Part shown: positions 3,184 to 52,939 of the stretch, piece after piece
Numbering within the stretch: position 1 is the stretch's first letter
How the letters are laid out: the number at the start of each line of letters is the position of its first letter
NCBI GenBank assembly: GCA_964016885.1
Contig: OZ024740.1
Location: 368,280,001 to 368,344,000, forward strand
Length of the DNA: 64,000 bases
Origin: Eledone cirrhosa
Taxonomy: Eukaryota
Direction: 5' to 3'
Made by a program: the position numbers and the translations under genes
The notes under the pieces: model-generated
Seen by the model: only the letters and a program-made list of their open reading frames with translations
Told to the model about the DNA's origin: nothing
Database searches by the model: none

Positions 3184-5445
3184 AGGGTGTTAAAGTTTGC
3201 TTGAAGCATTGTGAAATGTGTAAAATACGTAGTTTAGAAAGCCACAACAAAGCAGAGGGAAATCTCGAGGTAGGAAGTGAATGATAGATAGGAGAAATAG
3301 GAGAAAGTGAAAATTGAGAGTGACAAATATGAAAACAAAACAAAGGTAGAAGGGTTACCGTAGTGGAGATTTAATCCCAATATTTCGGGCTCACGCCCAT
3401 CAACGGGGGAAAGTTCCAAAAGGGGGGGAACAGGCTAAGCCGGAGAAAGTTGTGTTGTCTTTAAAACAGGAATGCCGTTATGGGGAGAACATTTTTTAAA
3501 ATTTAAATGAGGGAAAGAATGCGCGTGCGCGTGATAGGCTGTGGCAAAAGCTACTGACCAAATGGGTTAAATCAAGAGGGTGCGCTAGCGTGTGAGAGCC
3601 GTAAAATATGTGTGTGTAAATATATATGTGTGTGTAACTGTGTGTGTATATGTGTAAGTGTGTATATGTGTGAGTGTGTGTGTGTGTGAAAGATAATGGG
3701 CTGTAGAAGCTGGAAATCAAAGGGTGTGAAAGGTGGTAGGTTGTAAAACATGTGTGCGTGTATAAATATAGATGTGTGTGTGTATGCGTATGGGTATATA
3801 TGTGTGTGTAACTGTGTATGTATATGTGTGAGTGCGTGTGTGTGTGAAAGATAGTGGGCTGTAGAAGCTGGAAATCAAAGGGTGTGAAAGGTGGTAGGTT
3901 GTAAAAACATGTGTGCGTGTATAAATATAGATGTGTGTGTGTATGCGTATGGGTATGCATATACGTGCGTGTGTGTGAAAATAGCAGGCCGTAAGGGCTG
4001 TGAATGGTCACTATGGTTAAGTTAGCCATGTCAGCTCATTTCTCTCAGCCCGGTTGTTAAGTGGGGGTCTGAGGTTCTTAATAACAAGTGCTTCCTTTAT
4101 CCTTAAGGATCCGATGCTGCGTTCAGTCGCTAGGACTGTGACCAAGGGTCTACCCTGTGGGTTTCCGCATGTAAGGATGTGTTTACGGAAGGAAGATGCG
4201 TTGGTGTTGATATGTTCCTTGATACGAACATGTAGGGGTCGGATGGTGCTACCTATGTAAAACTTGTTACATTTATCGCATTGAATCTTATATACGACAC
4301 AGGTGCGTAGGCAATCTGCCCCCCGTATCGGGCAGTTGCTGAGGGAACACGTCCCATCTGACTCGTCGGGTTTGTTGGAGAGGCATCATCGCAGCGAGGG
4401 TCCTGTGTGGGATAAATGTATGTCAAGTCCCTCCGTCCGTATGGCCCTGCGGATGGCGTTCGTGGTATATTCACTCAGGTGGGGGATTTTAAAGAAGCAC
4501 CTGCTTTTATTTAAGTTTCTAGTGGGTGCCTGTCTATTGGGTCTGGGGTCTCTAATTCCGTTAATCAGTCGCTTGGGATATCCATTAGACTTGAGTAGAT
4601 TACGGAATTGCGTGGTATGGGTGAGACCACCCATCGGGTCGCTGCATCTGTTAGTGATCCGTGTTAGTTCATTTAGGACATAGCCTCTCTTAGCGTTGTT
4701 GGGGAGGGCTGAGTTGTAATGCACAAATAAGTCCTTGCACGCTGCTTTGCGGTAGAAGGTGGTGTTTATGTCTCCTTCTTCCGAGATGTTGATACGGAAG
4801 TCGAGGAGGGCGAGTGACCCGTCTTCTCCTGGGTGTTCGATGGTGAAATCGACGTGATGGTCAGTATCGTTGAAGATTTGGTGAATTTCATTCGCCATCT
4901 CCCGGGAAGAAGTAAGTATCAGGATGTCATCAACGTATCTGGAGTAGAAGGCGACGGCGTTGGGTTGGCAGGTATTGAGTGCCTTGCGTTCCAGGTGGTC
5001 CCTGTACGAGATCGCAAGTATGCCGGACAGACTAGAGCCCATATGTAGCCCAGAGATTTGTTTGTACGTGTGGCCGAGGAAATTGAAGAGTGCATTATCC
5101 ACAACGAAGGAGAGGAGTTGGTGGATGTACGTGTGTGTGAGTCCGAAGCAGTGTAAGTTAGATGCTCGGACTCGTTCGGTCAACAGGTCGACGGCTGGGG
5201 ATGCTGGTACGGAGGTATAAAGGGCGACCACATCAAGACTGAAGGCATAACCGTTGTCCTTTCTGGTGTTGGGCGCCAGATGGTGTAGTCGCTCCAAGAC
5301 CTCCTTTGAGCTGCAGACGTGGGCTGGTAGTGTGTGTAGAATGGGTTTCAGTAGTGTGGAGAGCAGCCACGATATTTTGTAGAGTGGGCCCTCCACGCTA
5401 GAGACAATGGGCCTGATTTTCAAATCGGGTCCTTGTTTATGTGTT
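3181..5445 (-). mobile_element. Penelope-like element, inverted 5'-truncated arm (RT C-half, GIY-YIG, 3' region)
   Basis: Reverse complement of ~6598-8200 plus ~10436-11055. ORF 4386..5552(-) has RPIVS, SLDVVALYTSVP and RYVDD RT motifs. Abuts a (TA)n tract at 3106-3180. Confidence 0.93.
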
Positions 5446-8025
5446 GCACCCATAAGGGACCTATTCAGACTATCGGAGAATTGTGCCAAACTCGGTTGCC
5501 AAATTACCTTCTTAAAACCCTGCCTAAAGAACAACATCATTCCAACCACCATCAGGAATATATTCTACCCGAATGTTTACGATCACCATCCTTCGAAAAC
5601 ACCATCCGCCACATTCAACGCACGTTTATCAAGAAAATACTACGACACAACCACCACCAACTGCGACTCCATATACAAACGCTTTCCGAGCACATAGATC
5701 GTATAGCTCCAACCCTCACCCCTGACCACCAGGTCCAGGAAATACGCAAAGCTATCGATCAGTGTTACCACACCAGAGTCAAATATGATAAACAGCGCCT
5801 TATACGGAAATACGAATGGACTGTAAACAAATGCTACAATGACAACATCCGCTCCCACAGACGGACCGACTACAACCACACCAGGGGCAACAGCTATACA
5901 ACACCCTCCGCTACACCCCCAACATCGATCTACCTACCAACGATGCTTCACACCTCGTTACCGACCTAACCGGTACCCTCACCAACGACGAACTCGAACT
6001 TCTGCGCCTCGGACCCAAGTTCATCATTACACAGCGTCTCGATGATAGACTGAAACTCGACATCGAAACCAACTTCTGTCGGACAGCATATCAACTGAAA
6101 TGGCTAACCGCCATCCAAAACAACACCGAGATCGATTACAACCCCACAACCCACCCCACACTCCCCACGTACCACCTCGACAACCCACTCCACCTCCCAC
6201 CCACCAGCCACGAACTTGACACTAAACTACTCAGGTTGAAACATTCTATCTCTAACATCCTTTCCCAACACACACACACACACAATAAACGCAACCTCAC
6301 CAATGCACAATTTAATACTCTCACCAACCTAAGATCCAGGAACCTTGTGTACCTTCCCTCCGACAAGGGGAAAGAATTCTGTGTCATCTCGAGAGAGACC
6401 TACAACAACTTAGCTCTCCAACATCTTAATGACGACAGCCTCTACTCGAAAGTCACAGGGACCTCCTCGACTCTAATCGAGGAAGGCATTAACACCATAT
6501 GGACTAACATCTGTGTCCAACGAAAACTGCCAAAGAAGGTAAAAAACAACATATTGACTCGAAACAGCAAACTACCCACCTTCTACCACCTGGTTAAAAC
6601 ACATAAACAAGGACCCGATTTGAAAATCAGGCCCATTGTCTCTAGCGTGGAGGGCCCACTCTACAAAATATCGTGGCTGCTCTCCACACTACTGAAACCC
6701 ATTCTACATACACAACCAGCCCATGTCTGCAGCTCAAAGGAGGTCTTGGAGCGAATACACCATCTGGCGCCCAACACCAGAAAGGACAACGGTTATGCCT
6801 TCAGTCTTGATGTGGTCGCCCTTTATACCTCCGTACCAGCATCCCCAGCCGTCGACCTGTTGACCGAACGAGTCCGAGTATCTAACTTACACTGCTTCGG
6901 ACTCACACACACGTACATCCACCAACTCCTCTCCTTCGTTGTGGATAATGCACTCTTCAATTTCCTCGGCCACACGTACAAACAAATCTCTGGGCTACCT
7001 ATGGGCTCTAGTCTGTCCGGCATACTTGCGATCTCGTACATGGACCACCTGGAACGCAAGGCACTCAATACCTGCCAACCCAACGCCGTCGCCTTCTACT
7101 CCAGATACGTTGATGACATCCTGATACTTACTTCTTCCCGGGAGATGGCGAATGAAATTCACCAAATCTTCAACGATACTGACCATCACGTCGATTTCAC
7201 CATCGAACACCCAGGAGAAGACGGGTCACTCGCCCTCCTCGACTTCCGTATCAACATCTCGGAAGAAGGAGACATAAACACCACCTTCTACCGCAAAGCA
7301 GCGTGCAAGGACTTATTTGTGCATTACAACTCAGCCCTCCCCAACAACGCTAAGAGAGGCTATGTCCTAAATGAACTAACACGGATCACTAACAGATGCA
7401 GCGACCCGATGGGTGGTCTCACCCATACCACGCAATTCCGTAATCTACTCAAGTCTAATGGATATCCCAAGCGACTGATTAACGGAATTAGAGACCCCAG
7501 ACCCAATAGACAGGCACCCACTAGAAACTTAAATAAAAGCAGGTGCTTCTTTAAAATCCCCCACCTGAGTGAATATACCACGAACGCCATCCGCAGGGCC
7601 ATACGGACGGAGGGACTTGACATACATTTGGCCCACACAGGACCTTCGCTGCGATGATGCCTCTCCAACAAACCCGACGAGTCAGAGGGGACGTGTTCCC
7701 TCAGCAACTGCCCGATACGGGGGGAAGATTGCCTACGCAACTATGTCGTATATAAGATTCAATGCGATAAATGTAACAAGTTTTACATAGGTAGCACCAT
7801 CCGACCCCTACATGTTCGTATCAAGGAACATATCAACACCAACGCATCTTCCTTCCGTAAACACATCCTTAAATGCGGAAACCCACAGGGTAGACCCTTG
7901 GTCACCGTCCTAGCGACTGAACGCAGCATCGGATCCTTAAGGATAAAGGAAGCACTTGTTATTAAGAACCTCAGACCCCCACTTAACAACCGGCTGAGAG
8001 AAATGAGCTGACATGGCTAACTTAA
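5446..8025 (+). pseudogene. PLE RT/GIY-YIG polyprotein ORF with frameshifts and one internal TGA (7655-7657)
   Basis: ORF 6236..7657: GLPMGSSLS, RYVDD, LLDFRI, TTFYRK. In frame after the TGA: C..NCP..C..VVYKIQCDKCNKFYIGSTIRPLHVRIKEH...KEAL.I...PPLN (GIY-YIG). Upstream pieces lie in different frames (5407..5697, 5433..5969). Confidence 0.9.
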
Positions 8026-8200
8026 CCATTGTGACCATTCACAGCCCTTACGGCCTGCTATTTTCACACACACGCACGTATATGCATACCCATACGCATA
8101 CACACACACATCTATATTTATACACGCACACATGTTTTTACAACCTACCACCTTTCACACCCTTTGATTTCCAGCTTCTACAGCCCACTATCTTTCACAC

Positions 8201-10423
8201 TGTACTGTGACCAAGGGCGTAGTCACGCTAGTGAGGAAGGACGAGAACAAGGGGGGCGAAATAATTAACTTCAGGCCCATAACTCTGCTAAATACAGAGT
8301 TACAGATTTTGGCCAAGGTGCTAGCAAAGAGGTTGGCGCTTGTCGTGGGCAACCTGGTGGGAGATGCGCAGACATGCGCTATCCCGTCCAGGTCCATCCA
8401 TGACAACCTCCACCTCATGCGATGCATCATAGAGAGGGTTGGGAACGAAGCCGGCTTTGGTGGGGCTCTGATCAACTTGGATCAATCTAAGGCGTTCGAT
8501 AGGGTCGACCATGGTTACCTGGATGCGGTGCTAGCGGCGGCAGGCTTCGGACCCGTTTTCAGGGGCTGGATCACTGCTATGCACAGCAGCCGCATCTGCT
8601 CTAGGGTCAAGGTGAACGGCTACCTCTCGGAGCCGTTCAAAATCGCGCGGTCCATCCGACAAGGGTGCCCTCTCTCCTCCCTTCTGTATGTGTTGACTCT
8701 CGAGCCACTACTGCGGAAGTTGGAGTTGTTGCAGGGCATCCCTTTGGAACCGGGATTGCGGAAAGCGGTGTCAGCCTACGCCGATGATGTGACAGTAATG
8801 GTGTCGACGGCCTCCGAAATCGAGGCGGTCGGCACCTTACTGGAGGAGTACGAAAAGTTCACAGGGGCTAAGCTGAACCGGGACAAGTCGATCGGTTTGC
8901 AACTCGGCACGTGGAGGGGCAGTCCGATGCCCTCCGATGGCGTCGTCGAACGCTGGACGGAGGGCCCGGTAAAGTTGCTCGGGGTCTGGTTCGGACCGGA
9001 CCTCCAGGTGGAGAAAAACTGGGCGGAGGTTACGAACAGGGTGTTTGCACTGACCCAGAAGTGGGCCAGTTGCAAACTATCCCTGAAAGGTCGGGCGGAG
9101 GTGGCGAACACTTATATAGCGTCCGTCATCTACTGCCGCCTGACCGTAGTGCCCTGCCCAAGGGAAACCCTCACCAAGATGGAGCGCGAGCTCTTCCAAT
9201 TCCTTTGGAAGAGGAGGGCTCCTATGGTGAGGAGATCCATCTGCTGTCAACACCCTTCGAAAGGAGGGCTGGGGATGCCGTGGCTAATGATGCGTAAACA
9301 CGCATTAAGGCTACGGCACCTCTACGTATTCCTCACCGGACAACCGGTGTGGGCCTCGTTTGTGAGACGAACCTTTCCCAGACTCGTCTCACTCACCGAG
9401 CTGCAATCCTGGGTCAAGCAAAGACCGAGAAAACTGGGCGCCTGGCACACTGAGTGTGCCCAGGCGCTCACCGCCCTCTGGCAGGCGGATCCGGTTATCA
9501 GTGGAGACTCCACCGCAACATTCTATAGAGGGCTGGTACGCAGCAGGTGCGACGACGCCCTCGGAGAAGCCCTAGACATGGAGGAGGACGAACTGGCCAG
9601 CCTGTTCGGTAGGACATTCAGCCCGGGACCTATGGACAACTTCCAGAAGTCCCTGGCCTGGCAGTGCTACCGAGCGGCTTTACCTGTTCGAGAAAGGCTC
9701 TACAGACACGGGCGCCCGGGCAGGGACCCCGCCAAAAAGATCTGTCCCAGATGCGTGTGCGACGAGGAAACCGTTGCACACGCATTGGTACACTGCTCGG
9801 GCGTAGCCGATCTGTGGGGCTATGTCGAACAACTGCTGTCAAGGGTGGGACCGATCCGGTTGACCACCGAGTCTATTGTAATGATCAAGCCGCCTCCCCC
9901 CTTCAAAGATGAAGCAGAGGCGGTGTTTCTGTGCGTAATAGCCATGGCGAAAGAGGTTGTATGGTGGACGCGTCTGAAAGGACTGAGGTCAGGCACCTTT
10001 CTCTCTGGCCAACAACTGGTCCGTTTCTTCCGATATCATTTCGGAAGAAGGATCAGGATGGAGAGAGAGGTGCTGCACCCCAGTCGTTTTTATGAAAGGT
10101 GGGTGAAAGTGGCGAGAATGGCCCGTGTGAATGGGCCTTCTCTTTACATAAGCCTGTAGGTGGAAAAGAGGAAGGAACGAGGGAGCACCCCCTCTCTGTG
10201 CTCCTGAGGAAAAGGGTTGCACACTTTTTTCGGGGGTGTGTGCGACCCCCCAAGGCGCCTCCTCTCTATTGAGGATTTTGTTAAAAATTTTATTTTTTGT
10301 TATATCTTATTTTATTTTTATATTTTGTTATTGCCTCCTCCTTATTGAGGACGCCTTTTTGTGTAAACTCCCCCCTTTGTACTTGTCCCACTTTTGATGC
10401 CCTAGTGGCAAATAAAAGAAACA
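8201..10423 (+). mobile_element. 5'-truncated Tx1/L1-clade non-LTR retrotransposon nested in the PLE 3' region
   Basis: GC-rich block with a 650-aa ORF, a T-rich 3' UTR and AATAAA at 10411. Flanked by direct repeat TATCTTTCACAC at 8189-8200 and 10424-10435. Absent from the inverted arm. Confidence 0.92.
8207..10159 (+). CDS. Non-LTR reverse transcriptase with C-terminal CCHC zinc finger (N-terminally truncated ORF2)
   Basis: NFRPITLLN, LDQSKAFDRVDH, IRQGCPLS, AYADD, KGGLG, CPRC..EETVAHALVHC. Uninterrupted frame; no endonuclease domain left. Confidence 0.9.
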   Translation: MTKGVVTLVRKDENKGGEIINFRPITLLNTELQILAKVLAKRLALVVGNLVGDAQTCAIPSRSIHDNLHLMRCIIERVGNEAGFGGALINLDQSKAFDRVDHGYLDAVLAAAGFGPVFRGWITAMHSSRICSRVKVNGYLSEPFKIARSIRQGCPLSSLLYVLTLEPLLRKLELLQGIPLEPGLRKAVSAYADDVTVMVSTASEIEAVGTLLEEYEKFTGAKLNRDKSIGLQLGTWRGSPMPSDGVVERWTEGPVKLLGVWFGPDLQVEKNWAEVTNRVFALTQKWASCKLSLKGRAEVANTYIASVIYCRLTVVPCPRETLTKMERELFQFLWKRRAPMVRRSICCQHPSKGGLGMPWLMMRKHALRLRHLYVFLTGQPVWASFVRRTFPRLVSLTELQSWVKQRPRKLGAWHTECAQALTALWQADPVISGDSTATFYRGLVRSRCDDALGEALDMEEDELASLFGRTFSPGPMDNFQKSLAWQCYRAALPVRERLYRHGRPGRDPAKKICPRCVCDEETVAHALVHCSGVADLWGYVEQLLSRVGPIRLTTESIVMIKPPPPFKDEAEAVFLCVIAMAKEVVWWTRLKGLRSGTFLSGQQLVRFFRYHFGRRIRMEREVLHPSRFYERWVKVARMARVNGPSLYISL

Positions 10424-26863: not shown

Positions 26864-28205
26864 TAAAGTTTTATAAACCGTTATGACTTTTTAAGCCCAA
26901 CAGTTGATAAGAGACGTCAAAAATTAAGTCCTGATTGTTTAGTGTTTTTTCCTGACTTTTTGCGAGGCTTAGAATGTAGACAAAGCTTTATGAAGGCAGT
27001 TTGAGAATAATTGGCTTTTTTTGTTAATTAAGTTTTCATAATTAGTCATTATAGTCTCCTTTGTGCAGAGGTTGGAGTTAGTTGATATATACGAGTTTGT
27101 GTATATTTTACTATTACAAAGCTTCGTCCAAAAATCGAGCATTTTAAATGTTTGTCTTTTAATGACCATATAAGTTGTGATAAAGAAGTCGAAGACTTCC
27201 TATTAAAATTCGAAAATGAGCATTTGTGATTTGCAAATCTCGATTTAAATGTCAAAGAACTTGCCCCTATATAGTCGTATGTGTTGTTATTTCTTTTCAC
27301 GGTGCATTTATATACCAGGTTTCTATCCAGACAATTATTTTACCGAGAGCAATCTGGTTTATTTCTACAATTACATTTCGATTTATTATTATTTATATTA
27401 ATATTATTATTAATAGCATTATATTGATTTTGGTTTAGAATTATACTATTTAGTTTAGCGATGATTTGGGCCATACTCATAGTTGTAGAATAAGAAAGTT
27501 TAATTGTGTGTCTATTAAATATGGAGTGGTATTTATGTTGACTAGGGAAGGAACTATCTAAAGCTTTAAAAAATAGATTAGCTATTGGTGTTCTTACTGC
27601 TTCAAAAGCAGGGGACGCAAACCATATAACTGATTTAGTTATGGTTCTTTTACCCGATTTACTCACAGTACAGGTGTTTGAATTATAGTTATTAGAATTT
27701 TTAGAATTTCGTTTATATATGCCATTATTTTTATCAGGATTAAGACTCGGATTATTATTGTCTATATATTCTATATTATGTTTATAACCTGCCTTTCTTA
27801 GCGCAACATTGTAATATCCTGCTTTTTCATCAAATATTGATTTATTGGCAACTATTCTAGTTATGCGTTTCTGTACACTATTTACAATTGCGTTTTTCAC
27901 AGATTTAGGGCGATTAGAGTAATAACTAACGTAATTTAAGTTTTCATTGGGCTTATGGAAAGGGTAATAAAAACCAGAGTTTAAGCTAAGGGTAACATCA
28001 AGCAAATTAACTATTTTGGTACCACTTTTAACCTCTAGTTTAAGGTGGTAATTTTTAAAGAATTCAATTATTTCTTTACCCTATTTAGTTCTGTATTGCT
28101 GTGTTTAACAACAATATTTAACTACTTTTCCCATCTTGACGTTATAGTCGCATATATGTTATAGAATGCCGTTAGCTTCTTGCTAAAACAATCTCTATAC
28201 CTCCC

Positions 28206-28324: not shown

Positions 28325-28365
28325 TGAATCTGAAGATTGCGAAAGAGCATGAAAGTACTTGTTCA
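28325..28365 (+). ncRNA. Type I hammerhead ribozyme (minimal)
   Basis: TGAAT-CTGAAGA-TTGC gaaaga GCAT-GAAA-GTACT-T-GTTCA, with palindromic AGTACT stem III. Lies in a ~190-bp island between TA tracts. Confidence 0.68.
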
Positions 28366-37002: not shown

Positions 37003-37242
37003 GTTTTTCACTGCTCCAAATAATGACGTATTATATTCGTTTTTTCCAGTTATTTGCCAGAGAACGTTTCCACGAACCAAAGTATCGTCTTCCCGTCTTC
37101 CTCCGATTGCAACATTTTTTTGAAATATTCACTTCTGCGTTCACAGATTGACTTTGTTAGTTTCAGAAGATCCCGTTAAGGGTTAACGCAGCGATTCGTT
37201 GCTTAAACTTTAATCTGTTATTTTAATAAATATATATATAAC

Positions 37243-38024
37243 ATTAGAATTGGTGCTCTGAAATAGCTATATATATATATATGAATGTATATATAATGTA
37301 TTTTGCAATACACTGTATGCTTAATTAAAAGCATTTCGAAGACCTTATGCTATTGTTTTAGAGTAGTGACAGACTCACTTTCTTTAATTTTCAGCAAACA
37401 GGGGAGATAAAGCTGACAGGGCCCTGTTTCGCATTTGTTGATGCTTATCAAAGCCAACTACTGCTCCTGTTTGCTGCAGTCATGGATGTTTGGTTCTTAT
37501 AGAATTCTAGTAAATAATCAGGAACTGATTATACAGAGCGGTTGCCGGTCAAGAAGAAATTGAAAATTAGAATTGGTGCTCTGAAATAGCTATATATATA
37601 TGACTGTATATATAGTGTAATTTGCAATACACTGTATGCTTAATTAAAAGCATTTCCAAGACCTTATGCTATTGTTTTAGAGTAGTGACAGACTCACATA
37701 CATTCATATATATATAGCTATTTCAGAGCACCAATTCTAATTTTCAATTTCTGCTTGACCGGCAACCGCTCTGTATAATCAGTTCCTGATTATTTACTAG
37801 AATTCTATAAGAACCAAACATCCATGATTTCAGCAAACAGCAGGAGTAGATGGCTTTGATAAGCATCAATAAATGCGAAACAGGGCTCTGTCAGCTTTAT
37901 CTCCCCTGTTTGCTGAAAATTAAAGTAAGTGAGTCTGTCACTACTCTAAAACAATAGCATAAGGTATTCGAAATGCTTTTAACTAAGCATACAGTGTATT
38001 GCAAAATACACTATATATACATTG

Positions 38025-38025
<1 letters not shown>
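37243..38025. mobile_element. Diverged retrozyme relative: ~1.4 units (-) joined head-to-head with ~1 unit (+), unit ~324 bp
   Basis: Shares GCTATTTCAGAGCA, GACCGGCAACCGCTCT and CAGTTCCTG with the 310-bp unit. Inversion junction ~37698. HHRs at 37411-37455 (-) and 37852-37896 (+). Confidence 0.88.
37852..37896 (+). ncRNA. Variant hammerhead (U3-A8 core); mirror copy 37411-37455 (-)
   Basis: GGCT-TTGATAA-GCAT caataa ATGC-GAAAC AG ggct CT GTC-AGCT, enclosed by stem TTTCAGCAAACAG/CTGTTTGCTGAAA. Confidence 0.82.
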
Positions 38026-38069
<44 letters not shown>

Positions 38070-38514
38070 AACACATATATACATATACAGGGAGTGTAAC
38101 CTGAAGTTACTGTAGGTTCCCCCAGGTAAGCACTAGGTGTTTAGATTCCCATTTGTAGTGATCATTTGATTCCAGAATCGGGCCAGTTTGATAAAGATCG
38201 AACCTTGAGCTGAAACGCGCATCTCCAATCAATAAACGTGATTAAGGCGTACCAATTCGTCCTTGTATTATATATATATATGATCAGGCAAGTTGTCAGA
38301 CTGACATATACTCTCTCTTTTAATTGAGATAGAAGATTTCTGTGACAGTTTAGTCTCTGAAATTTCCAGTTGCTAAGTAACGGATTCATTGAGCAATAGA
38401 TGATTAACTTGCTTAAACATTTAATTTTGTATCTCTGAAATTATATTAATTTGGTTTCCTTTATTTGAAGGTACTCTAATGTGATCGTCCTTATAGTATT
38501 CTCAGCTTTGTTTA

Positions 38515-38896
38515 AGATCATAGCGAATCGTCTTCTAAATGTTTTTAATTAAACATACAGTATATTGCCAAACGTACTATAGATGCATCCCTATTTCAGA
38601 GCACCAATACTATTACCTAATTCTTGCTGGACCGGCAATCGCTCTGTTTATTCAGCTCCTGACTATTACTGGAATTCTATAAGAAACCAGCCTCCATAAT
38701 TCTCGGCAAAATCAACTGTGTGTGTGGTCTTGATAAACGCTCACAAGCGAGAAACAAACTGTCTGTCGGCCGCTCTCTGTTACTTTTGCCGAGAATAAAT
38801 AAGTGAGATAGTGACTACTTTCAAACTCATAGCGAATGGTCTTCTAAAGGTTGTAACTTAAACATACAGTATATTGTCAAATATACTATACATACA

Positions 38897-38900
<4 letters not shown>
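38515..38900 (+). mobile_element. Third retrozyme relative (~1.2 units, period ~309 bp)
   Basis: TCATAGCGAAT.GTCTTCTAAA recurs at ~38518 and ~38827. Shares CTATTTCAGAGCACCAAT and GACCGGCAATCGCTCT with the other units. Confidence 0.82.
38725..38772 (+). ncRNA. Variant hammerhead (U3-A8 core)
   Basis: TGGTC-TTGATAA-A CGCT caca AGCG A-GAAAC aaactgtct GTC-GGCCG, enclosed by ATTCTCGGCAAAA/TTTTGCCGAGAAT. Confidence 0.75.
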
Positions 38901-38937
<37 letters not shown>

Positions 38938-48859: not shown

Positions 48860-51800
48860 TTCTTCTTCTTCTTTTCGTATCCTCGAAGCATGTGGTTATA
48901 TGACAGTTTCCCATTTCTTTACACAGTCCTTTGCATTCTTATTAAATTCTGAGAAATCTATTAAGCTGCACTGGTTGGGTAGTAGAGGGCAAACAAGGCA
49001 GTGCTGCATCGTATGGTCCTCCTCTCCGCATTCGCAGATGGTTGGTCTGGGCTTGTCGCCCCATCTGACCATAGCAGCCTTTGATCGCCCATTCCTATTC
49101 TCAGGCGGTTGAGTGTCTTCCACTGGACCCATTGTGCTTCTGAGCCAGGAGGGAGGGCTTCAGGAGGGGGGATTCCCATGTCAATAGAACTGGAGACATT
49201 CTCTTGCTTTCCAGTCCATAGCTGTAGACTGGTTTTATCCTGAGATGTTTTAGGGGCTGGACATGGTTGAGGAAGCTTCTCCTTGGCTTCAGTCGTTAGG
49301 CCGGAGGTTCACGTCCGTGAAGGAGGTGGCGTTCATCACTGATAGCATTTGTGATCTCTACTCAACTGGCAGCTTCCCGTCTCACATCTGCAGGGGCAAT
49401 GCCACCGAGGAGATGCAGGTTGTTCAGGTTGGTAGGCTTCAGGCAACAGGTGATCAAACGGCAGGTGTTGTTCAACGCTGGGTCTATTTTACTGGCATGG
49501 GTTTATCTCTCCCAAACAGGACACGCGTACTCCACAGAGAAATAACACAGGGCCAAGGCAGTACATCTTAGTGTGTGTGCTGTGGCTCTCCATTTGGAGT
49601 TGGTCAGTTTCCGCAGGATGTTGTTCCGGGAGCTGACTTTCAATTTGGTGTTTTTGATGTGTTCCTTGAATGAGAGAGTGCCGTCCAGGGTTACGCCAAG
49701 GTAGACAGGATTGGTGTAGAACTCATGTGGTGTTCCTGACCATGTGATGTTAAGAGGCTGGTTTGCTTCCTGGGCCCTGATATGGAACGAGCAGGCTTGA
49801 GTCTTCTCTTGGTTTGCGTGCAGGTGGTTGCTCTCGTAGTAGAGGAGTATCTCATCCAGCGCTGAGTTGAGGTTTGCTTCTATTGCTTCGAACGTACTCT
49901 CTTGGGATGTAACACAGAGTTCGTCAGCGTAGATGAACCGCTCAGTGTTCCGGTCCATTGGCTAGTCATTTGTGTAGAAGCTATATAGTAGTGGAGCAAT
50001 CACACTACCTTGAGGTAAGCCGTTCTTTTGTCGTCGCCAACGACTTTGCTTGTTGTTCAGGATAACACAGAAGCGCCTGTCTTTCAAGAGGGCTCCAATG
50101 AGGTATGTGAGTGCCAGGTCTCTTGTCAGCTCCAATATCTTCTTCAGGAGGAGGTGATGGTTCACAGTGTCGTATGCAGCCGACAGATCAACAAAGACCG
50201 CTTATATTAACAGTCCTTTCTGAAAACCATCTTCAATGTGGTGAGTGAGATTCATGAGTTGGCTTTTTGTGGATTTGCCAGGTCGGAAACAGCTTGTTTG
50301 GAGATGATGACTGGTTCAACAACTGGGGCCAACCTGCTGAGGATCAGGCGCTCAAACAGCTTAAACGGGTGGCATAGCAGGGAGATTGGGCGGAAACACT
50401 TTGCATGCGCTGGATCTTTAGCCGCTTTGAGAAGTGCAATCATTCTGGTTTTTCTCCAGATCTTTTGGATGTTTCTTGTCAGCATGCAGTTGTTCATCAG
50501 CTCAAAGATCCATTTCTGTGTCAGAGGTCCAAAGTGCTTGATCTCCTCTGTAAAAATATTATCTGGGACGATGGCTTTACCATTCTTTAGGGCATTGATG
50601 CTGATATTGAGCACTTCAAGCGAGAACGGCTTAGTAGAGTCCGGTGGTTCGGGAGTACTGAAGTACTTTGGTCTTGGCAGTTTAGTGGTAGATTTCCCAT
50701 TGAGCAACAGCTGATATGCAACTTGGTTGGGGGTGATGGCGTACTGTTGTTGTGTTGGAGTTGACGGGTCGTTGCTGATTTTCCGGATTAGATTCCCTGC
50801 CTTTTTACTGTTTTTCGTCATATCAGTTGTCTCCAACAGGTTTTGCTATTTCCGTTGGCGGCATCCTGATAGGGAGGTTATGAGTCCCTCACCTACTTCG
50901 ATGGTACTTTCAGCAAAGGTCACATTCATAGAGCTATTGGTATTGTTCATATAGTTCGCTGCTCTGAGCATTGAGTCCAGGAATGTATTGAGTGCGGCAG
51001 CCTCTCGGGATGTTCTTCCGAGCTGCTTGTTGGACAAACTTGGTGAAGTTATCGTAGATTTTGGGGTCCACTGGGAGGTGGGCAATCTTCCTTTCAAGAT
51101 CTTCGTGGAAGCCAAGCGAGTTCACTTTTCCAAAGTTGAATTTTCTTCGGAATGGAACTGTGGCTGGGGCGATTACAGCATTGACTGTAATGCCAATGGG
51201 GTCGTGTTGGATTTTTGGTAGTGGCTCCAGTACCTGCTTCTTGCTCAGTCCGGTGATGTTATTTCTGACAAACACGATATCAGGATTGTAACCTGCTTTC
51301 CATCGTCTGCTGTTGAAGGACTTTGGTTGTTTGGCATCGTGGATCAAATCAAGCTGGTTGCTTTCAGCCCATACTTCCACTGCATCTCCATCTGCATTGT
51401 TATTAGCATATTCCCATTGTTTGCTGTGGCTGTTGAAGTCTCCAATCACAATCTTTGGTTTTCCAGATGATGGTATTTCTGGCATCACGAGAGTTGGGAG
51501 AGGTGGTTTGTAGACTGAGGGGCTGGTAATTCCTCTGAGCTCAGCGGTTAGGACTTCGATGTTATAATCATCGTTCTTTGATGATGATTCGATGATTGTC
51601 CCATTTTTTGCAAGCATGATGCTTCCATTTTCTCATGTGGTCTTTCTATGAGGGTAGTCATTCTTTCCACACGAGGGCGGGGATGTTTAGGTCCACGGTG
51701 GGTTTCTTGTAGGCAGAGAATGTCACACTAATGCTCTCTGCAGAGTTTTGCAACAGGTTCTTCTTTAGTTGCAGATAGTCCTTCAATATTTAGAGATATG

Positions 51801-51980
51801 ATGGCCAATGCTGGCCTTAGAGGCGGGCGTTGGCCTCTCTTCATGCTCCGGACTAGTAGGCTACCGTCATTCGTCGAGCCTCTGGACATTTTGCTTGTCT
51901 TTCGGCTCTGCTTTGAAGTGTTTGGTAGAATTTGCAAGTAAACGTGGGTATTACTTGACAGGGATCGCGATGTGAACGCT
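48860..51980 (-). mobile_element. Near full-length decayed single-ORF LINE (APE + RT + CCHC), Vingi/Ingi-like
   Basis: APE motifs IISLNIEG, LCLQETH, IGDFNSH, PDI. RT motifs FRPISLLC, GLPQGSVIAP, YADE, YLGVTLD. C-terminal WKTLNRLR, CECG..H..CP. (GAA)n tail. Multiple frameshifts; clade assignment is from memory of the motifs. Confidence 0.88.
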
Positions 51981-52939
51981 TGCTAATAATTGTAAATATT
52001 TAGTGCATTCTTGTTACAAAGGTGTAATCTAACTGGATTTGAATTATTCAGTTAATATGATTTTAGGAACCACAATACTTATTGCAAAATAAATGATGTT
52101 CAAATCAATAGACAATATAGTGAATAAAATCCATAAAATAGTATATTAACATTGTAACACCAAAGAACTAAATTGTGGAAGTGAGGTTACATTCGCTCTG
52201 GGTGAATTATATTTCAACTCCTAGAATTCGGTGTTGATAAATGATTACCAGGTGTTTGTGGATCAAATCAAGCTGGTTGCTTTCAGCCCATACTTCCACT
52301 GCTCAGATGTTGCAGATCTGTGTAAATATACATTTCCTAAGTGAACATATATATTGAGACTGAAGAGAAATATTGTTATGTAAACAATCGCTATATCAAA
52401 GCCGTTGAGAATTATTCGTTATATATATAGTAAGATTGTTAATATATATAACTATATCATTAATCGTCTCCCAAACGTATGTTGATTTATCATATATTTA
52501 CCATGCTGATTACTTATTTTAGCAAAGAAAGGAGATGGTCTTACGGAAAATTGTATTTGCTGAACTAAAGTTGAATATCAGTTTAAAACAAAGTATTTCC
52601 ATATTTTATCATTGAACAACTTTACTGCTTTTTCTGCAACTGCTTGCGCCGCGAGTGCATAAAGGAGCACTTATTTCCAAATAAAAATTTTATAAACATC
52701 TTTCTTAGCTCGGTTGGAATCTTTAACCTCCTGACTGAACCAAGGCGTCCTCCTGCTACTCAGCGCCACATTAAGCTGCATCAGCAGCAGCTTTTACCAA
52801 CTGAAATAGAAGATGCTCAGCTGAACAATCTGCACTTTCTTTCAAAGTCCTCAGTTTGTTCAGGGCATTCTCTGAATTTCGATGCAGTTGTAATCGGGGG
52901 GAATTTTCAAATTACAAGTAGGTATGAAAATCAGTGCAG

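Follow-up and report, generated by a model that had tools for sequence, protein, structure and literature searches.

Repeats with predicted hammerheads at the locus

The window, meaning the whole stretch of 64,000 nucleotides analysed here, belongs to the Eledone cirrhosa genome, which is 3.0 Gb long, AT- and microsatellite-rich, and assembled in ~30 large contigs. It holds a family A array, a family B insertion and a family C insertion (Table 1). The periods of 324 and 309 bp given in the initial annotation, and the blocks that these units have in common with the 310-bp unit, were confirmed by blastn and alignment, with 72% identity between families B and C and 67% between C and the 310-bp family A unit. 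The units are 309–324 bp long, with a GC content of 34–40% and a longest ATG ORF of at most 46 amino acids, which fits the retrozyme criterion of ~170–400 nt and GC <45%.

Table 1 Retrozyme units and predicted hammerheads in the window.
Feature	Position	Strand	Basis
Family A array, 310-bp units, C3–G8 core: 4.3 units minus, 15.8 plus, 5′ ends inward	13860..20085	.	
Family B retrozyme arm, inverted, ~1.45 units (324-bp period), 5′ end inward	37240..37707	-	blastn, insertion architecture
Type I hammerhead UUGAUAA, U3 37451, A8 37446, helix II GCAU/AUGC, palindromic helix III, predicted cut after C17 37415	37411..37455	-	
Family B retrozyme, ~1 unit, running into (TA)n	37708..38030	+	
13-bp outer stem enclosing hammerhead 37852..37896	~37828–37918	+	
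Type I hammerhead, U3 37856, A8 37861, predicted cut after C17 37892	37852..37896	+	
Family C retrozyme, ~1.2 units (309-bp period), ends in (TA)n	38518..38905	+	blastn
Type I hammerhead, U3 38730, A8 38735, A10.1·A11.1 (38737/38750), predicted cut after C17 38767	38725..38772	+	

The three UUGAUAA cores described earlier are present, and the pattern TTGATAA-N14-GAAA matches the window at 37451(-), 37856(+) and 38730(+). All three motifs are predicted to fold as type I hammerheads within a long outer stem, with a folding z of -3.7 to -4.0 for the ribozyme domains. Each has the type I core letters (U4, G5, A6, N7 and A9; G12, A13 and A14; A15.1–U16.1; H17) and an open helix I. The 3–8 pair is U–A, and hence Watson–Crick, in all three copies, the literal C3/G8 consensus being absent. 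That all stems remain paired, as the initial annotation had it, applies to the two family B copies, which have G–C at 10.1–11.1, and does not apply to the third, which combines A10.1·A11.1 with a lost helix III pair. The A·A at 10.1·11.1 is characteristic of family C as a whole, with the CGCU/AGCG stem shifted one step outward. The helix III pair is broken by a private G>A at 38757, a position that is G in nearly all covering contigs (four contig sets in which the family is present).

The three window copies were rejected as independent covariation events, since the hammerheads at 37411–37455 and 37852–37896 belong to one insertion. Each window insertion has one ribozyme per strand, where a tandem arrangement would have at least two on one strand; the window U3–A8 copies are likely dead-end insertions, because a single same-strand ribozyme could not release a monomer. 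An Rfam scan gave zero hammerhead matches at E ≤ 1 for the three U3–A8 sites and weak HH9 matches for the C3–G8 array (23 bits, gathering threshold 52, E 0.32). Rfam microRNA matches in the window were set aside as microsatellite noise.

Further ribozyme-like motifs lie elsewhere in the window. Hammerhead-like motifs with a CUGAAGA core and an imperfect helix II occur at 28330(+) and 12353(-), the former near an ORF fragment (27340–28080) with no Pfam match. A weak Rfam match to a CPEB3/HDV-like ribozyme at 51924–52001(-) (26.5 bits, gathering threshold 35, E 0.008) lies just beyond ORF fragments at 49503–51632, which we take to be LINE-like. An unrelated repeat family with a U3–A8 hammerhead-like core, UUGAAAA, is present at 20768(-)/20853(+) and 63614(+). 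Its members have a short palindromic helix III, often form inverted pairs and end in (TA)n; there are 6,339 genome copies, the motif being identical in 100 of 100 among the matches listed. Some copies have ~1 kb of upstream sequence in common, and at one locus (L289) an ORF with a weak GIY-YIG endonuclease match (E 1e-4), possibly linked to the repeat, ends 860 nt upstream.

Genome-wide states of the 3–8 pair

The genome search was anchored on the shared block TTCTATAAG, which lies ~45 nt upstream of the core; the resulting counts are minimum figures, because the search overlooks any copy whose anchor is damaged. With any state allowed at positions 3 and 8, 23,293 anchored copies were recovered, against 13 with a reversed control, and the matches to the hammerhead pattern are not due to chance. 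A Watson–Crick 3–8 pair is found in 23,083 of these, as C3–G8 in 18,677 copies and as U3–A8 in 4,406; the remainder comprises C3·A8 (56), U3·G8 (50) and other states (104, by subtraction). Most subfamilies have U–A at this pair and two have C–G, and the dominant family today, with ~18,000 copies, is C3–G8. With a slightly different anchor, ~683 C3–G8 copies were counted outside family A. The initial annotation had named in advance the comparison that would bear on its claim, that of C3·A8 and U3·G8 with the paired states; the two mismatched states make up 106 of 23,189 copies, far fewer than the paired ones, and the claim withstands this comparison.

Copies with a mismatched 3–8 pair are spread across all subfamilies and are nearly all singletons. 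Neutral rates measured in 18 family B copies are 0.6% for T>C and 0.64% for A>G, and the mismatches would represent decay after insertion at about this rate; their rarity would then partly reflect youth. The informative observation is that none of the amplified subfamilies has a mismatched pair. Neither position is a CpG in CTGATGA, which rules out CpG decay as the origin of C3>U and G8>A.

Four pairs of mismatched copies were checked. One lies in a larger duplicated segment, one is an apparent local duplication, one is a tandem dimer and one consists of separate insertions, namely two U3·G8 copies that are 86% identical with unshared flanks. These two insertions of one subfamily are possibly a small lineage or a parallel mutation; with U3·G8 in only 2 of the 54 copies of that subfamily, U3·G8 as an amplified intermediate subfamily is unsupported in bulk. 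Three similar C3·A8 copies have a deletion, and both of those checked are inside a larger duplicated segment.

Covariation, helix closure and fold

The covariation alignment comprises 29 natural copies from approximately nine subfamilies, chosen as intact representatives with paired 3/8. Double changes are present in 20 of its 31 pairs, in line with the covarying stems described earlier, the pair counts ignoring descent. They are distributed over the outer stem (10 of 15 pairs), helix I (3 of 6), helix II (4 of 5) and helix III (2 of 4), and the 3–8 pair is also double-changed (UA in 20 copies and CG in 9), by selection of copies. Paired cells amount to 87%, compared with 36–49% in slid controls, and RNAalifold recovers helices I–III unprompted. 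Position 7 is variable, and U4, G5, A6, A9 and G12–A15.1 are invariant in the 29 copies, core letters being also fixed by the search pattern. Between subfamilies positions 3 and 8 always change together, and the core letters are retained over branches of 0.2–0.3 changes per site. Double changes, pairing and the RNAalifold helices support the initial proposal that RNA structure has been under selection while a family of mobile repeats with ribozymes radiated; this selection is on the source elements, and inserted copies decay neutrally.

The closure of helix II is less regular. The standard 10.1–11.1 pair is absent in 16 of the 29 aligned copies, and A/C10.1·A11.1 is found in 612 of the 4,406 U3–A8 copies. 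Hammerheads that lack the standard pair are reportedly rejected by Perreault's filter.

The main variants that were folded have a self-complementary helix III, whose self-duplex is predicted to be far more stable than the hairpin. Among 66 copies of subfamily B1, one helix III pair is G–C in 22, G·U in 8 and A–U in 34; the loop is palindromic either way (GGCC vs AGCU). This self-complementarity would fit cleavage as a dimer. When monomers were folded, the hammerhead was the minimum-energy structure in 1 of 15 copies; in the other 14 it lies 1.3–10.2 kcal/mol above an alternative with a paired core.

Phylogeny of the core pair

The tree was built from 65 of 177 full units (44 U–A and 21 C–G) after masking of positions 3 and 8; copies with a mismatch and the majority of near-duplicates were excluded. 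It requires three changes of the 3–8 pair, and its starred branches force at least two. A single C3–G8 clade is rejected (p-AU 0.0013 with 65 units and 0.0056 with 48 rows); the group names used in this test were assigned after viewing a first tree. With the whole ribozyme masked, a single C3–G8 clade is no longer rejected (p-AU 0.15), and one-change trees make up 0 of 200 bootstraps. Family A (C3–G8) is nested among U3–A8 lineages on a long branch (0.33). Family F lies beside the B clade; monophyly of F is not rejected (p-AU 0.47), so two changes are allowed, and with the result for the masked ribozyme the figure of exactly three switches is not established. Recombination between subfamilies may be a source of the tree pattern. 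On this unrooted tree, the core pair likely switched two or three times within one superfamily.

Insertion architecture and mobility

The U3–A8 lineages were recently mobile. Subfamily B1 has 304 exact genome matches, with U3–A8 in 99 of 100 among the matches listed, and one U3–A8 array contains six cores at a period of 316 bp, with differences of 0–1 base among its five full units. Copies are circular permutations of a ~310-bp unit, and often comprise 1.2–1.5 units or arrays. An inverted arm is present at the 5′ end in 40 of 55 family B loci, in all of them with 5′ ends inward; (TA)n adjoins 35 of 55 left ends and 37 of 55 right ends. Tandem same-strand ribozymes occur at 10 of 30 family B loci. 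Many insertions of family B and of the UUGAAAA family end with ...TTCTAAT into (AT)n, which suggests priming by short target homology and perhaps a shared mobiliser.

The window also contains a Penelope-like element (PLE) with RVT_1 and GIY-YIG domains at 4017–8020. Like the family B insertions, it consists of two inverted copies whose 5′ ends face inward, and it is followed directly by a 663-aa LINE-type RT ORF (RVT_1, weak zf-RVT) at 8168–10159. The motif descriptor gave no hammerhead at the 3′ ends of this PLE, and no PLE terminal repeat homologous to the units was found at the window PLE or in retrieved loci. No PLE coding sequence adjoins the units in the mapped family B loci (tblastn with endonuclease and RT-fragment queries, 269 loci), and tblastn with proteins of the window PLE revealed no autonomous partner in the retrieved loci.

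Interpretation

The window repeats are very probably copies of a large non-LTR retrozyme superfamily, with units of 300–325 bp, a predicted type I hammerhead and a probable PLE-mobilised cycle. By analogy with known elements, a tandem retrozyme array would be transcribed and each hammerhead would cut after GUC or GUA, probably with help from self-complementary helix III elements that pair in a dimer, and the released monomers would circularise. A Penelope-like RT/GIY-YIG endonuclease would then copy the circles into (TA)n tracts, an insertion whose 5′ end would carry a truncated copy in inverted orientation. PLEs are, on the same analogy, the likely mobilisers of the retrozymes here. New subfamilies would arise only from RNAs still able to cleave, so that double changes that keep the pair would be amplified and single changes would be seen as dead copies. 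Evidence against this reading comes from the monomer folds in which the core is paired, the copies with no standard pair at 10.1–11.1, the eight of nine Xenopus dimers that did not cleave (10.64898/2026.07.22.740005) and the failure to find a homologous PLE terminal repeat in the window PLE or retrieved loci.

In a rival account, the units are pseudo-LTRs (3′ ends) that became detached from autonomous PLEs and carry a vestigial or weak hammerhead, having spread as truncated PLE copies and by tandem amplification at the DNA level, with no RNA circles. PLE-type inverted insertions and (TA)n targets agree with this, as do the homology of Xenopus retrozymes to pLTRs described in 10.64898/2026.07.22.740005 and the first finding of bulk U3–A8 in PLE hammerheads according to PMC4209133. 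We consider such an origin improbable, as the circular permutation of the units, the mapped family B loci with no adjoining PLE coding sequence, and a canonical helix II of 4 bp with a loop of 6 nt and a complete helix III, unlike the minimal PLE form, all argue against it. It would be even less probable that the U3–A8 subfamilies are catalytically weak or dead passengers, mobilised without self-cleavage, with the pair retained for structural reasons or inherited from a single founder. Such passengers could account for the 612 U3–A8 copies with A/C10.1·A11.1, for a dominant family that today is C3–G8 and for a core buried in alternative folds. They are difficult to reconcile with core letters kept over long branches while 3 and 8 co-change, with a second, unrelated U3–A8 family of thousands of copies and a uniform UUGAAAA motif among the matches listed, and with the in vitro activity of U3–A8 ribozymes reported in PMC3088659.

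Within the retrozyme superfamily, we favour on balance a history in which U3–A8 and C3–G8 flipped two or three times and the dominant C3–G8 family arose inside U3–A8 lineages. This history includes the spread of several lineages in which 10.1·11.1 is mismatched as A·A or C·A. It would amount to a natural allelic series of a ribozyme in which fitness valleys were crossed, possibly via U3·G8, a state found in two independent insertions of one subfamily. Such tree-ordered hammerhead alleles would bear on how a catalytic RNA can exchange a pair in its core and cope with a mismatch at the closure of helix II. Surveys based on CUGANGA undercount, with U3–A8 in 4,406 superfamily copies and 6,339 unrelated copies and no Rfam match to it in the window; on the same reading, consensus searches would miss >10,000 hammerheads of this genome. 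The uniform inverted (TA)n insertions add invertebrate evidence for PLE mobilisation of retrozymes. The advance is incremental, because the element class, the U3–A8 variant and the PLE link have already been proposed or published.

Comparison with known systems

That U3–A8 is a natural compensatory variant overlooked by consensus searches, as the initial annotation held, is already in print (PMC3088659, PMC4209133). Natural covariation from C3–G8 to U3–A8, together with a U10.1·U11.1 mismatch, is documented in PMC3088659, which cites in vitro activity, and ~1,300 U3–A8 minimal hammerheads missed by a consensus descriptor are described beside ~2,000 C3–G8 ones in Schistosoma mansoni (PMC4209133). 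The giant squid is listed with 235 hammerhead matches (PMC6962438). Non-LTR retrozymes are defined in PMC7229834, with circles shown in mussel, and are linked to PLEs in the account of a Xenopus study, where one of nine predicted retrozyme dimers cleaved and eight did not (10.64898/2026.07.22.740005). PLE insertions are described with an inverted layout and (TA)n targets (10.1101/2021.04.23.441226). Our literature search, which covered freely accessible main texts, found no account of the present family or of repeated 3–8 switching, nor of A/C10.1·A11.1 in U3–A8 copies.

The units resemble the metazoan non-LTR retrozymes of coral, mussel and axolotl as presented in PMC7229834: ~300 bp, non-coding, GC <45% and with one type I hammerhead per unit, in dimers to long arrays and with PLEs co-existing. 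Unlike the retrozymes described there, most subfamilies here have a U3–A8 core and several have A·A or C·A at position 10.1·11.1; the present family is known from DNA. The resemblance to PLE insertions (10.1101/2021.04.23.441226; 10.64898/2026.07.22.740005) extends to partial tandems, (TA)n targets and, at the 5′ end, an inverted copy that is 5′-truncated. Unlike PLEs, the units are without coding capacity, and no homologous autonomous partner was found in the window PLE or retrieved loci.

The Cercyon PLE hammerheads of S. mansoni (PMC4209133) likewise have U3–A8 beside C3–G8 in one genome, missed by the consensus, with a palindromic helix III region and opposite-strand pairs 100–700 bp apart. 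As described there, they are minimal motifs whose helix II has 7–8 bp, and they mostly occur singly and are tied to the terminal repeats of PLEs, whereas the motifs here are canonical in size and belong to retrozymes of tandem units, the subfamilies of which can be traced on a tree. The U3–A8 hammerheads of PMC3088659 exhibit the same covariation, and their U10.1·U11.1 also occurs here in families A and F. That account gives few, scattered U3–A8 examples, whereas the present superfamily supplies thousands of copies and, likely, repeated switching.
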